DNA of 32,863 nucleotides from the IMG/VR virus record IMGVR_UViG_2700989508_000029. One strand, 5' to 3'. This DNA is from a virus. Lineage: Duplodnaviria; Heunggongvirae; Uroviricota; Caudoviricetes. The position numbers and the translations under genes are program-made. Shown here piece after piece: positions 22,176 to 28,964 of this stretch. The notes under the pieces are model-generated. The model searched no databases. It saw only the letters and a program-made list of their open reading frames with translations, and was not told the DNA's origin. How positions within the stretch are numbered: position 1 is the stretch's first letter; each line of letters begins with the position of its first letter.

Positions 22176-24935
22176 TCATTCTTCAGATGAGTTATAATCT
22201 CCTGGCTGGTAATTGAGTACATAAACGTTTATTTGTCGTCCCTGAATACGTGGTGATTTTCTTTGGTATCCACGACCGCTGTTTGGTGGGGTTAGCATCC
22301 CGGCTTTTTTCAACACTTCAGCAAACTGTTTTGCGTTGAAACCACATGCGATCTCCTTTTCAAATGTGGCCGGGAATGTGTAGAAAATCATTGGGCTTTC
22401 GTCATGTTCTCCACGCTGACGGTATCCGGCTAAATCTTTGATGGGCAAATCTGCCGGGCTGTATGGAAATGGTGCAAAACGGCTAAGCCCATAGGCATTA
22501 AGAAATGCCTCCGTTTGTTCAATAATCTGCTGATGCTCTTTGTTACCTGTGCCGAACTCGCGCAACCATGCGTTATAGCTGTGCTGTATCGCATCACGGC
22601 ATGTCTGAGCATCCCAGCCTGTTACAACCTCGCCTAACAACAATGCGGCCTCCATAATGGCAAATCGCGCGGCTACACGGTGAACCTGCTCACCATAATC
22701 GGATGGGATCAGGCTTCTCCATCTGCTTTCGCAATCACGAACGGTTTTAATAGCCTGTTGCTGGTGGTGTGCCAGCCATTTAATCCACTCACGCCCGGAC
22801 GCGCCGTGGTGATGCTGGTAAGCGTCTTTCAGTGCGTCTGCGTGCTGTTTTCCGTTCTGGTAATCGTGAAAGCGTACTGCTTTACTCAACGGAATATTCA
22901 GCAGTCGCACCAGTTGCCCGGCTTTGGTTTTTCGCCCGGAAGTAGCGATAAATGTTTCTAAATCCATTTCTCCGGTGCTGATTGCCACTGTACGCCAGCG
23001 TTTTAGATCCCGGTTTCCACCATCTTTAGCGCCTTGCAGTTTCCCTACACCGTTAAATAACGCATAGGCAGACTGTGAAACGCTGACAGGATCAGCGCCC
23101 TGACCAACTTCATCAAGCGGCATTAGTCCGTCATTGTGGGCGGCGGCCTCATTTGCCAGCCCCAGCGCGGTTCCGTACCACGTCAGCCGCAGTAAATCAG
23201 GGTTGCCGTATAAGCTGCTCGCCACGTTTGCCGTGGTGGTCTTACCTGCGCTCGACTGCTCATAGAAATGAATGCCGAACCCGTCAGCGCCCACCAGCCC
23301 AATCAATGGCGCTGCCAGTGCTGCGCCGATCCCGGTCATCATTGAATAGTTACCAAAGGCCAGACGCGCCACGTTATCACGCCAGCTTTTCGCGCTCCCT
23401 GAGACGGTATATCCGGCTGCGGCTGAGCTTCTCCCGCTGAACAGCACAGGATTTTCAGGTGTTCCGATGATTTCCCCATCAGGCATGATGTACGCTCCGC
23501 ATTGCCAGCCAGTGGCATGAGCAACACGCCACAATTCACGAGAGCCACTGCGTTGTAGCCAGTCTGCCAGTATTGCTCTGAGGCTGCTTTTGGTCGTGAC
23601 ATTTACCCCACCAGCTTTAAGTGTGCGCCATCCTTCACGTTCACCAATATCAGCCAGTGGAATGGCAGCGGTTGTCGGCGTTTCAGAACCAAACGACAGC
23701 CAGCGAAGAATGAGATACTGGTCTTTATCGTCTCTGCCAGTACCGATAACGCTTAACGGAGAACATAACCAGCTTTCGTTATTGATGATTTCTCCACTCT
23801 GGCTGTCAGCTCTCGGAGATACCCAATAAATACCATCCTCGCGGCTTTCTATTCTTGGTTTCAGTGGGTCGGTATCCATAACCTTAAAATCGCTTCCCTC
23901 AATGGTCTGTGGCTCCTGTTTCACGCCATTACCCTGTGGTTGGTACATTGACTTATTGAACGCTTCTGTGGCGCATTTAATGCCGTGTTTTTGGTGGTAA
24001 TCATTCCAGTCTGCTTTGTGATCTGTCGGGGGTAATGCCACCCATCCAGAAACAGATAAAGCTGCTTTTTCTGCTGCTATTCTCCCCGTGTTTTGTCTTC
24101 CTTCGCTGTGGTCGTTATCCGCAGCAATGATGATTTGTGCTGAAGGAAATTTATCCCGCAGTACCTGGGCGACATATAACAGGTTCCCGGCATCAATCGC
24201 CGCCACTGTCAGCGCCTCTGGACGAATTAAATGGGCAGATAATGCCGTTGCCAGACCTTCTGCGATTAAGATGCTCTGTGTTGTTTCTGGTGCGTTTATG
24301 GCGTGATATGCCCCCCGCTTTGCTGAACCTGTCAGGAGTCTTTTTTCACCATGTGAGGTAATAGTCTGTGCTGCTGTTACTGCGCCGGATTTATCCACCA
24401 GCGCCAGCAACAGAGATCCATCGGGCAACACGGGGAATGTAAAATCACCTACCCCTTTCGCAACCAGATAATCAGATTTGCCGTTTACAGCCTTTCTGCG
24501 CATGTCATCAAACTGACGGGAAAACGTATCCCGTCTTTGTTGTTCGTCCTTCTCTGCCCTTTTCAGGCGCTCCTGTTCGCGTCGCTGGCGCTCGGTTTCC
24601 AGTTGTTCCCGTTTCTGGCTGGTGGCTTCTGGTGTTTCCGTTGTCCGGTAATCAATACCCAGAACATCAGCGGCAAGAAGCGCCGCCTCTGTTGTGTCGC
24701 AGTTATTTACGCGTTTAATTAAATCCAGCCCATCACCAGCGCCGCACTGATTACAGATGAAGCTACCGCGCCCGTTGTCATCGAACCGGAATCGATCTTT
24801 GCCCCCACATGCAGGGCAGGGAGCATGACGGCGCGGAGAGTCAGGGACATTTATGTTCAGGCAGCCCAGCACATGAGGCCAGTTGTTTTCAGACGCACTG
24901 ATAACCTGACGGATAAGATCAATGTTTCGCATCAC
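22176..24935 (-). CDS. P4 alpha-like primase-helicase (zinc-ribbon + TOPRIM + Walker-A ATPase domain), 919 aa
   Basis: N-terminal Cys4 zinc ribbon (PCPACGG...FICNQCG); acidic TOPRIM-like segment (IIIAADNDHSEGRQNTG); Walker A (SSAGKTT); adjacent iterons. Confidence 0.85.
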   Translation of the reverse strand: MMRNIDLIRQVISASENNWPHVLGCLNINVPDSPRRHAPCPACGGKDRFRFDDNGRGSFICNQCGAGDGLDLIKRVNNCDTTEAALLAADVLGIDYRTTETPEATSQKREQLETERQRREQERLKRAEKDEQQRRDTFSRQFDDMRRKAVNGKSDYLVAKGVGDFTFPVLPDGSLLLALVDKSGAVTAAQTITSHGEKRLLTGSAKRGAYHAINAPETTQSILIAEGLATALSAHLIRPEALTVAAIDAGNLLYVAQVLRDKFPSAQIIIAADNDHSEGRQNTGRIAAEKAALSVSGWVALPPTDHKADWNDYHQKHGIKCATEAFNKSMYQPQGNGVKQEPQTIEGSDFKVMDTDPLKPRIESREDGIYWVSPRADSQSGEIINNESWLCSPLSVIGTGRDDKDQYLILRWLSFGSETPTTAAIPLADIGEREGWRTLKAGGVNVTTKSSLRAILADWLQRSGSRELWRVAHATGWQCGAYIMPDGEIIGTPENPVLFSGRSSAAAGYTVSGSAKSWRDNVARLAFGNYSMMTGIGAALAAPLIGLVGADGFGIHFYEQSSAGKTTTANVASSLYGNPDLLRLTWYGTALGLANEAAAHNDGLMPLDEVGQGADPVSVSQSAYALFNGVGKLQGAKDGGNRDLKRWRTVAISTGEMDLETFIATSGRKTKAGQLVRLLNIPLSKAVRFHDYQNGKQHADALKDAYQHHHGASGREWIKWLAHHQQQAIKTVRDCESRWRSLIPSDYGEQVHRVAARFAIMEAALLLGEVVTGWDAQTCRDAIQHSYNAWLREFGTGNKEHQQIIEQTEAFLNAYGLSRFAPFPYSPADLPIKDLAGYRQRGEHDESPMIFYTFPATFEKEIACGFNAKQFAEVLKKAGMLTPPNSGRGYQRKSPRIQGRQINVYVLNYQPGDYNSSEE

Positions 24936-25290
24936 CGTACCCCACGTGGTCTATAGCGTTTGCGATATGGCTAACCAGCATCTGCCACTTGGTTATTCCG
25001 TAATCAGTCAGCATGCCATCATTGTTTAGCCACATATCAAATTCAGCGGTTGTCGCAAGTTTCCACTTATCGCCGTGGACAGTCCTCATTGCTGGGTACA
25101 TGAATGCGCAAATCAGATCACAAACATCTGACGGCTTCAGAGATGTAGTAATGGTGCGTCCCTCTGGCGTCTGAATTGCCATTTTCTCTTCACCAGTAGA
25201 ATGAAGGTTATGAATCCACACAGCACCAGCAATCTTTGCCACCTGCTCTCCGATTGCGGAGCTAAGCGCCATTTCTGCATTTTCACGCAT
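24919..25290 (-). CDS. hypothetical early-region protein (123 aa)
   Basis: ORF in a translationally coupled series. Confidence 0.5.
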   Translation of the reverse strand: MRENAEMALSSAIGEQVAKIAGAVWIHNLHSTGEEKMAIQTPEGRTITTSLKPSDVCDLICAFMYPAMRTVHGDKWKLATTAEFDMWLNNDGMLTDYGITKWQMLVSHIANAIDHVGYGDAKH

Positions 25291-27962: not shown

Positions 27963-28138
27963 TTGTTAACCTCCGCGAACTCCTTCATGAAACGTGCCAG
28001 CGGTTGTACGCATGGCGATTGATACCCGTCGCGATAAAACGTCACTCGGTTGTGAGACACGCTTTCGACAGTAACGAGTGCTCCGTGGGCATCTTTGTAG
28101 CGTTTTTGAGGTTGTGGTGTTCCTGTCGGCTTAAACAT
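27956..28138 (-). CDS. hypothetical small protein (60 aa; MFKPTGTPQPQKRYKDAHGALVTVES...)
   Basis: Start at the internal ATG 28138; the ORF-track extension would overlap the upstream gene. Confidence 0.45.
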   Translation of the reverse strand: MFKPTGTPQPQKRYKDAHGALVTVESVSHNRVTFYRDGYQSPCVQPLARFMKEFAEVNKC

Positions 28139-28964
28139 GGACCGCCTCCAGACGCTTAGCGAGCCAGCGTTGCGACAGGCGGGTGAGTTCTCCTTTGCGC
28201 TGCTCATATTCCATGCCCATATCAATTAACGTGATATTGGTGCTTTCGAGATATGAGAGGTGCTCAAGCTGTTCTGCGTTCATATGGTCGCGAGGTTCGC
28301 CAGAATAGCCATTTATCCGCGCCCACTGCTTAGCAGTTAGCCCACCAAGAACGATACGAGAAATCATATTGCTCTCGTTTGTGTAGTGGTGTTGCTGCGT
28401 CGTTTTCCCCATCTCGGCACGGGCCATATTCAGCGCATCGCACATTGGCTTAAAGTTGTTTGCGGCACTGATACGGGCTTTTAGCTGGCGACGATAGCGG
28501 GCGGCGATTTCAGGCACGCTACGCTGTAATTCTTCCTCGCACTGGATGAAATAACGGCGGATAGCGCGCCCCTGATCATTGCGTTCGATCATTGCCAGTT
28601 CTTTCGCCATTCCGACACTTAACAGATAGTCTTTGCCGGGTCTTCCAGACTGCTTAATCTTGCTGTAAGCCGCGCCATTCGGGCTTTTCCCCAAATTTGG
28701 GGAAATTGTTTTATGGACTGAGTAATCGTGCCCAATGGTGAAGTCATATTCAGAGATGCGATCAGTGATCCATGTAGAGAAGTCTTTTCCCACGCCCAAC
28801 GCTTTGTGTAACGCTTTTGCGCTAACAATATTGGTTTCACGCCCACCGATATGACCAGGAATAACCGGGACAATTGCGGCAAATTCATTACCGTTAATTG
28901 TGCCCAGAGAGGCGTTCAGATGAGGGGCGGCCTCAGAAATTAATCTGCTTTTTTCGATGTTCAT
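28131..28964 (-). CDS. hypothetical protein, possibly phage antirepressor / Rha-type regulator-like (277 aa)
   Basis: GGAGA 7 nt upstream of the ATG; segments NIVSAKALHKALGVGKDFSTWITDRI and RRYFIQCEEEL are reminiscent of antirepressor families. Low-certainty memory match. Confidence 0.5.
   Translation of the reverse strand: MNIEKSRLISEAAPHLNASLGTINGNEFAAIVPVIPGHIGGRETNIVSAKALHKALGVGKDFSTWITDRISEYDFTIGHDYSVHKTISPNLGKSPNGAAYSKIKQSGRPGKDYLLSVGMAKELAMIERNDQGRAIRRYFIQCEEELQRSVPEIAARYRRQLKARISAANNFKPMCDALNMARAEMGKTTQQHHYTNESNMISRIVLGGLTAKQWARINGYSGEPRDHMNAEQLEHLSYLESTNITLIDMGMEYEQRKGELTRLSQRWLAKRLEAVHV

Follow-up and report, generated by a model that had tools for sequence, protein, structure and literature searches.

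We analyzed a 32,863-nucleotide (nt) stretch of DNA from a virus of the Caudoviricetes (IMG/VR record IMGVR_UViG_2700989508_000029), referred to below as the window. This text concerns its minus-strand segment 26895-27962, which lies between a gene for an AlpA-family regulator and a primase gene. The segment is filled by one open reading frame (ORF) of 355 codons, inside which two small RNAs are encoded on the same strand. We consider it likely that the segment is the immunity switch of a satellite of the P4/PICI type (PICI, phage-inducible chromosomal island) at a tRNA-Thr gene, in which a read-through ORF resembling eta of P4 is combined with an RNA switch. The design is already known regulation, namely RNA immunity of the P4 type, and the only departure from it is a 2-nt re-phasing, by which the gene nested in frame with the long ORF is no longer icd/kil but the next gene. 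The gene coordinates are those assigned by the Prokaryotic Genome Annotation Pipeline (PGAP) in Escherichia coli CFSAN027343, to which the window is 100% identical over the region. The features of the segment are as follows.

26895..27962, minus strand: 355-codon eta-like read-through ORF (PGAP 'ash family protein'), from ATG at 27962 to TAA at 26895 with no internal stop
27708..27814, plus strand: P22-like small-terminase remnant of 107 nt (gene nt 268-374), antisense to the long ORF; a PGAP pseudogene 'DNA-packaging protein' in one relative
27588..27617, minus strand: candidate internal constitutive promoter (PLE-like), -35 TTGCCG 27617-27612, 18-nt spacer, -10 TATGGT 27593-27588
27504..27581, minus strand: isrK/P4-seqA-like leader RNA (Rfam RF01394, 67.1 bits against a gathering threshold of 50)
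27354..27441, minus strand: C4/P4-CI-like antisense RNA (Rfam RF01695, 79.5 bits against a gathering threshold of 45; full-length match 1-87)
27308..27349, minus strand: downstream target region (equivalent of P1 a2/b2 and P4 seqC), recognized by complementarity and covariation
27106..27300, minus strand: Icd/Kil-like gene of 64 amino acids (aa) (NCBIfam NF033153, 71.7 bits against a cut-off of 25, 3.7e-20), in a frame different from that of the long ORF
26895..27113, minus strand: orf72, with GGAGG and ATG of its own and an 8-nt overlap with the icd stop; a separate PGAP gene in strain 510016

The long ORF begins with GGAGG, 7 nt and an ATG that lies over the stop of an upstream DUF4222 gene (ATGCTAA). 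It contains the terminase remnant, the candidate promoter, both RNAs and, in another frame, the Icd/Kil-like gene (icd below), and its in-frame 3′ end is orf72. Over the same stretch the other two minus-strand frames carry 13 and 15 stops. The icd gene is at frame offset 2 relative to the long ORF and has GGAGG 7 nt 5′ of its ATG at 27300; its frame is closed by a TAG at 27333-27331 and by 14 more stops further upstream. A preliminary description of this DNA had reported an ORF from 27962 without an in-frame stop before 26895, which is indeed the case over 355 codons, and a GGAGG site in favor of the small genes, which is found before the ATG of both icd (27300) and orf72 (27113). It had also described two frames as open together over 27113..27962. 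The long and icd frames do overlap in an open state, but only over about 27106-27332.

Both RNA matches were obtained with Rfam at its curated gathering thresholds, and both lie on the strand of the long ORF. The leader RNA comprises a1 (27550-27556), b1 (27533-27540), a G+C terminator hairpin (27510-27524) and a U7 tract (27503-27509), and a terminator scan also identified this hairpin, followed by T7 (27509-27503), as an intrinsic terminator at the isrK end. The Rfam c4-a1b1 model scores 17.9 bits on the leader, under its threshold. The C4 RNA carries the b′ loop UCCAUUCGA in hairpin 2 (27390-27398), a′ (ACGCCAA, 27376-27382) in the junction and a 3′ CCA at 27356-27358; the CNCCA at 27356-27360 is conserved and fits the CCA-like 3′ end needed for maturation by RNase P. 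Read from the sequence, the candidate promoter would put +1 at the 5′ end of isrK (27581), and it aligns column by column with the TTGCCT...TATAGT upstream of P4 seqA. A perfect palindrome, TTGCCGTTATGCGGCAA (27601-27617), overlaps the candidate -35; on the plus strand it resembles a terminator followed by a T-run, and it could be an operator or an antisense terminator. The same pair of isrK and C4 RNAs is present in the cI region of P4, in the 'immunity region' of SfV and in Gifsy-1.

The two RNAs and the region downstream of them are connected by antisense complementarity. The b′ loop UCCAUUCGA is exactly complementary, over 8-9 nt, to TCGAATGG in the leader (27533-27540) and to TCGAATGGA (27310-27318), and a′ is exactly complementary, over 7 nt, to TTGGCGT at both 27550-27556 and 27343-27349. 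The downstream targets are therefore a2 (TTGGCGT, 27343-27349) and b2 (TCGAATGGA, 27310-27318), and b2 overlaps the Shine-Dalgarno (SD) sequence GGAGG of icd (27308-27312). Nine E. coli relatives (89-99% identity) fall into four specificity types, and from type to type the loop changes in step with both targets; the type of locus L003, for instance, has b′ UCCUUCAGA where the window type has UCCAUUCGA. We then pooled P4, SfV and the E. coli relatives with 120 loci from a pattern scan of IMG/VR that was keyed solely on the leader terminator. From about 100 loci, 16 b′ and 10 a′ variants were found in 23 combinations, or specificity types. All 23 types have matching a1/b1 and a2/b2, with pairings of 7 nt for a and 8-11 nt for b, and b2 ends in the GGA(G) of the SD sequence. 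Taking the weaker of both b pairings, the mean length is 8.8 nt when loop and targets are cognate and 5.1 nt when they are not.

Covariation in an alignment of 24 sequences agrees with these pairings. When the C4 helices are taken together with a′/a2 and b′/b2, 98.7% of the cells are standard pairs and 25 pairs have changed on both sides; none of 500 shuffles reached the observed level, and slid registers were 32-47% paired. The outer stem and two hairpins of C4 form three helices that are 99.5-100% paired over the 24 sequences (13 of 27 pairs changed on both sides). An alternative helix can also be drawn between GGTGGTAGC (27330-27338, between a2 and b2) and the 3′ strand of the C4 outer stem (27357-27365). 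It is 98.1% paired over the 24 sequences, with double-sided changes at five pairs, and this suggests a possible structural switch, that is, an alternative fold of the read-through transcript.

The closest counterpart is P4, in which the order PLE - seqA - CI RNA - seqC - kil is nested in eta. The RNA families, their order and the logic of the a and b targets are the same in the window. The first regulated gene is a Kil/Icd homolog of 64-65 aa in both, the window protein being a homolog of P4 Kil, which forms the last 65 aa of the P4 eta ORF. In both, the primase ends the operon, and the long ORF begins upstream of the internal promoter, beside an AlpA/Vis gene, and runs through the RNAs; the P4 ORF has 214 codons, and its end is homologous to the window Icd-like protein. 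According to the account of Forti et al. 1999 in PMC10111431, eta contains a constitutive promoter (PLE), seqA and CI and is translationally coupled to the alpA homolog; as summarized there, full translation of eta takes place only when transcription starts at the upstream late promoter, and this translation averts termination and thereby lets late transcription read through.

The two systems differ in several respects. In the window, orf143, antA and DUF4222 separate alpA from the ORF, the two RNAs are spaced by 63 nt, against 108 nt in P4, and the upstream part of the ORF holds a remnant of a P22-type terminase. The loop and target sequences also differ from those of P4, and the immunity specificity therefore differs. 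The main difference concerns phase. In P4, kil is the in-frame 3′ end of eta, whereas the window ORF is 2 nt out of phase with icd/kil and nested with orf72. P4 and SfV read GGAGGCTGCCATCATGGCTAC where the window reads GGAGGCTGCCACATGCTGGCTAC, with two more nt between the SD sequence and the conserved GCTAC of icd; because of these two nt the long frame is out of phase with icd and ends at the orf72 stop. When 84 distinct ORF variants were compared, 63 shared the reading frame of the first regulated gene (Kil/Icd-like, Rha/Ant-like or SfV-type), which is nested in them as in P4. The remaining 21 belong without exception to the Icd clade of the window; they are out of phase, and most of them extend past the icd stop by 172-211 nt.

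This offset bears on the preliminary description, which had proposed a frameshifted gene, a programmed frameshift or a sequencing error at the homopolymer 27503..27509. The run is present as T7, and the notion of a shift is right insofar as the two extra nt relative to P4 and SfV put the long frame and icd out of phase; what they reflect is an evolutionary re-phasing common to 21 distinct variants, and no error. A break between the two parts might also be read from PHROG 6928, which spans both in one frame, and from strain 510016, in which a 10-bp duplication fuses both frames. However, since the isrK match ends in a G+C hairpin followed by T7, the homopolymer is the U-tract of the isrK terminator. 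P4 and all nine E. coli relatives have the identical run, and SfV has T6, one base shorter, at the same position. Simulated gain or loss of one T gave ORFs of 210 or 155 codons that end at stops and never reach icd. Both shifted frames thus meet stops, and the icd frame is itself closed at 27333-27331, which speaks against programmed frameshifting. In addition, icd has its own SD sequence and ATG and is targeted by the antisense RNA. Because one-T indels fail to join the frames and T7 is conserved, a frameshift or sequencing error at this run is unsupported, and we regard a frameshift of any of these three kinds as scarcely credible; since the run is a terminator, no resequencing is needed.

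The preliminary description had set against its own proposal the case of an intact 355-aa protein conserved at full length in relatives. Such an ORF is found in eight of the nine E. coli relatives, down to 89% identity, under the PGAP name 'ash family protein', and yet it is no ordinary protein gene. The exception is strain 510016 (locus L002), where a 10-bp tandem duplication inside icd, TCGCCGCAGT at window-equivalent 27255, shifts the frame of the icd-like gene and joins the long frame to that of icd. At this locus PGAP annotates an 'Icd-like protein' of 146 aa. The duplication may be an inactivating mutation of a toxic gene.

It is evident that the frame is kept beyond these relatives. Of 56 unique isrK..C4 segments in the IMG/VR set, 55 have the long frame open throughout. 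The segments are 190, 217, 229, 265 or 274 nt long, all differing by multiples of 3, and the single variant of 275 nt is the one with the broken frame. The start is always GGAGG, about 7 nt and ATG (GTG in one variant) at the end of the upstream gene in the clade of the window. With the observed substitutions placed at random, an open frame survived in only about 2-3% of trials for either of two divergent lineages. An ORF of 355 codons is not expected by chance, and a purely fortuitous frame is disfavored both by the substitution placement and by the open frames with lengths in multiples of 3.

In contrast to its openness, the amino acid sequence of the long frame does not appear to be maintained. 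Variable sites are distributed over the three codon positions as 19/19/19 upstream of the RNAs and 43/38/38 across them. In a second count (18/10/16), 36% fall at position 3, compared with 54-86% in neighboring genes. The ratio of nonsynonymous to synonymous polymorphism (pN/pS) is 0.61 in the first 123 codons and 0.92 in the RNA region, against 0.72-0.96 and 0.75-1.19 in the five other frames. The long-ORF region also varies about four times more densely than antA. The first ~220 codons show no constraint at the amino acid level, and on the codon-position and pN/pS tests the long ORF was rejected as a conserved protein.

The family assignment of the ORF should be read in the same way. Pfam Phage_ASH (PF10554) matches it with 105 bits (gathering score 26; 3e-30) at aa 124-232, and the ORFs of P4 and SfV match as well. 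The matched part (27267-27593) coincides with both RNAs, a2/b2 and the rest of the stretch as far as where the next gene starts, and membership in the family therefore says little on any protein function. The PGAP name derives from the old 'ash/cI' ORF annotation of P4. Although the 355-codon frame is intact in them, loci L001, L003, L005 and other E. coli relatives are annotated by PGAP in two ways, with a full-length 'ash family protein' or with an 'ash' pseudogene and a separate Icd-like gene, a systematic inconsistency explained by the RNA-bearing nature of the ORF.

These data bear on two further explanations. The ORF might encode a genuine Ash/Eta protein, such as the 'transcriptional repressor' named in the PHROG and P4 RefSeq annotations, in which the RNAs are merely embedded. 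Pfam and PHROG families do exist, the ORF is long, properly initiated and conserved in its openness, and its C-terminal 72 aa (orf72) show variation biased to third positions. We nonetheless find such a protein very improbable, given that codons 1-220 lack constraint, that the part upstream of the RNAs differs among relatives in length (37-916 nt) and origin and includes the antisense terminase remnant, and that base-paired RNA columns account for the conserved residues. Immunity in P4 is RNA-based, which also counts against a protein. Alternatively, the long ORF could be an artifact of annotation, with an untranslated leader containing two small RNA (sRNA) genes and 'ash' or Phage_ASH being a translation of conserved RNA. 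The position of the Phage_ASH match, the flat variation over codon positions, the pN/pS values within or near the range of the other frames, the inconsistent PGAP calls among near-identical relatives and the fast evolution of the region would all agree with an artifact. It fits poorly, though, with a frame that stays open in 55 of the 56 distinct relatives although their loops are of 16 types and their spacers of five lengths, with the conserved start overlapping the upstream stop, with the low rate of openness under random substitution, and with the reported translation of P4 eta and Gifsy-1 orf45. An artifact is accordingly an unlikely explanation in our judgment. The long ORF seems important as a path for ribosomes, and not because of the protein it encodes.

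Other immunity systems share parts of this arrangement. The immI region of P1 and P7 is reportedly organized as c4 antisense RNA, icd and ant. In these phages, a′ and b′ pair with a1/b1 upstream and with a2/b2 downstream, b2 overlaps the ribosome-binding site of icd, and heteroimmunity results from co-varying loops. The window has in common with them a C4-family RNA, the layout a1/b1 - c4 - a2/b2, a b2 at the ribosome-binding site of icd and specificity through co-varying loops. It differs in its downstream cargo, which consists of satellite replication genes where P1 has ant; an antirepressor-family gene lies upstream in the window. Its leader, too, is of the isrK/seqA family (67 bits) and only weakly of the c4-a1b1 type.

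A second parallel is the isrK - orf45 (STnc1160) - anrP region of Gifsy-1, in which isrK is likewise followed by a C4-family RNA; a frame through this C4-like RNA is translated there, with coupling to the gene downstream. In our comparison (locus L134, 34073-34210, minus strand), orf45 overlaps the C4 match and starts at the conserved AUG of C4 nt 5-7, in the same frame as the window ORF. The Gifsy-1 ORF has 45 codons, starts inside C4 and is not continuous with the isrK part, whereas the window ORF enters from upstream, and the regulated gene in Gifsy-1 is an antirepressor. IsrK has been described as a structural homolog of P4 SeqA and as an activator acting in trans, and translation of orf45 is required for making the downstream antirepressor (PMC4825925). 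Finally, Gram-negative PICIs and P4-like satellites have the order int - alpA - Bro/Ant-type genes - primase at a tRNA site, from which the window shows no essential difference, and CI and seqA homologs inside the Bro-zone genes of PICIs have already been noted (PMC10111431).

Based on these comparisons, the likely immunity switch could work as follows. In the resident state, for which the RNA parts are those observed above, the internal promoter (~27588-27617) inside the long ORF would make the leader RNA, which would end at the isrK/seqA-like terminator (U7) or be read through and processed to the C4/CI-like RNA. The b′ and a′ segments would then pair with a1/b1 in the leader and with a2/b2 downstream. 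Pairing at b2 would cover the SD sequence of the icd/kil-like gene, presumably the first gene under control of the antisense RNA. With icd untranslated, Rho termination would be expected, and the small genes and the primase would be off. In the induced state, for which the anatomy and its conservation are as described, transcripts of the upstream alpA unit would carry ribosomes from DUF4222 straight into the 355-codon ORF and on across the promoter, both RNA genes and the target sites. By analogy with P4, this translation would block the RNA structures and Rho, and expression would reach the primase regardless of immunity. Translation of the long ORF would thus prevent immunity-dependent (Rho) termination, a role supported indirectly because the frame is conserved without constraint on its amino acids.

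Several observations weigh against this proposal. Rho termination and processing by RNase P are taken over from work on P1 and P4, and expression of the RNAs and activity of the internal promoter in this element are predicted from sequence. The candidate promoter matches the consensus at only 8 of 12 positions and, being under the threshold of the scanner, was not called. An intrinsic terminator sits within the proposed translated track, and the ORF is not nested with icd/kil, unlike in P4. Taken alone, the openness of the 369 nt before the RNAs does not reach significance among close relatives (P = 0.47-0.99 per lineage), and part of the openness could be a by-product of conserved G+C-rich RNA sequence. 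Over icd, the alternative frame is free of stops in all 14 cases, and close in-frame relatives carry one or two stops there; an open frame over icd is, however, expected in about 76% of synonymous-codon randomizations, and with a chance of 0.76 selection for it is not demonstrable.

A more specific idea is that the long ORF is kept only as a ribosome track, its encoded protein drifting freely, and was re-phased by 2 nt in this PICI clade so that induced ribosomes would cross the toxic icd/kil out of frame, making no Eta-Kil fusion and being delivered to orf72 and orf64. We hold this to be rather doubtful. If true, the re-phased track would be a selected whole-gene overlap that serves the coupling of transcription and translation.

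The genes around the long ORF form a chain on the minus strand, which holds every gene between the integrase adjacent to tRNA-Thr and the primase. The order is alpA, orf143, antA, DUF4222, the 355-codon ORF, icd-like, orf72, orf64, orf87, orf73, orf200, orf113, orf123 and primase. Those not listed above, apart from orf143, are as follows.

29408..29611, minus strand: AlpA-family regulator (PF05930, 7e-20), first gene of the upstream transcription unit
28131..28964, minus strand: AntA/AntB (Bro-type) antirepressor-family gene (antA; PF08346, 1.3e-21; PHROG anti-repressor Ant)
27956..28138, minus strand: DUF4222 gene of 60 aa (PF13973, 2e-24), its stop overlapped by the long-ORF start
26708-26902, minus strand: orf64
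26448-26711, minus strand: orf87
26230-26451, minus strand: orf73
25635-26237, minus strand: orf200
25283-25624, minus strand: orf113
24919-25290, minus strand: orf123
22176..24932, minus strand: primase/helicase (Zn-ribbon, Toprim, DUF927), last gene of the operon

From alpA to the long ORF, the successive junctions are an overlap of 1 nt, a gap of 12 nt and overlaps of 8 and 7 nt; from icd to the primase they are overlaps of 8, 8, 4, 4 and 8 nt, a gap of 10 nt and overlaps of 8 and 14 nt. The coordinates bear out both the chain of start/stop overlaps from alpA to the primase and the ten genes within 24919-28964 of the preliminary description. Its statement that none has a recognizable function does not hold, given the matches to AntA (PF08346), DUF4222 (PF13973), the Icd-like family (NF033153) and, for the long ORF, Phage_ASH. 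The window alpA is the positional counterpart of vis/ORF88 in the layout of P4, and the coupled genes orf64 to orf123 (24919..26902, minus strand) lead into the primase.

A purine-rich, often GGAGG-like stretch lies a few nt 5′ of most ATG starts in the chain. Among relatives, the share of variable sites at the third codon position is 0.54 in antA, 0.86 in DUF4222, 0.58 in orf72, 0.62 in orf64 and 0.70 in orf123. These results support the small genes as real and translationally coupled. Searches of Pfam, NCBIfam, PHROG, PADLOC and PDB sequences gave nothing informative for orf143, orf72, orf64, orf87, orf73, orf200 and orf113. The PDB matches of orf123 to polyubiquitin chains (E ~1e-15) amount to about 6 bits summed over nine ubiquitin repeats, and a ubiquitin-like protein was rejected. 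The AlphaFold model of orf123 has a predicted local distance difference test (pLDDT) score of 87.7 and consists of three helices and one beta hairpin; a fold search with it gave no significant structural neighbor. The C-terminal half of the AntA-family protein (28131-28964, minus strand) matches the PADLOC candidate defense family PDC-S22 (4e-11).

The terminase remnant (27708-27814), which lies in the 369 nt of the long ORF upstream of the RNAs, is 91.6% identical to nt 268-374 of the gene of phage CurroJimenez, and about 91% identical to CurroJimenez and IME10. Its left edge falls where the 22-mer pac site of P22 lies. Of the whole remnant, the 22-mer equivalent to pac is conserved least (16 of 22 positions, against 82 of 85 for the rest), and a working pac site is therefore unsupported. 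That the fragment, beginning at the pac position, is a packaging signal for a P22-type helper is a weaker possibility.

Further P22-type genes, ejection-protein genes among them, directly follow the primase (16755-21413, minus strand), namely DUF2824 (gp14-like), gp7, the gp20 translocase and a 701-aa gp16-like ORF, and these in turn are followed by an Abi_2 abortive-infection gene (14275-15297, minus strand). The P22-type genes may have been captured as late genes, or a P22-like prophage at the same tRNA-Thr gene may have left them behind. A 21-bp direct repeat, AATGGTGCCGATAATAGGAGT, occurs at 31418-31438, overlapping the 3′ end of tRNA-Thr, and at 536-556, 30.9 kb apart, and a second integrase gene (612-1976, plus strand) adjoins the distal copy. 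The window as a whole may represent a single composite island or a tandem of two elements. It also includes a block of low G+C content at ~6000-12000 (0.34-0.38, compared with ~0.50 around the segment studied here) with few long ORFs.

The 1.15-kb region of the proposed switch is common in E. coli. Some match is found in 1260 of 5426 complete genomes, and at least 80% of the region in 479. At this locus, the annotation 'ash family protein' would mark an RNA-based immunity switch and not an ordinary protein, and this would explain why it is applied inconsistently. For the biology of the satellites, the genes gated by immunity in this PICI clade would be those from icd through the primase. The comparative data set, with its 23 co-varying specificity types and a reading frame kept without amino acid constraint, supports, beyond P4, the notion of translation through an sRNA locus as a regulatory device in itself.

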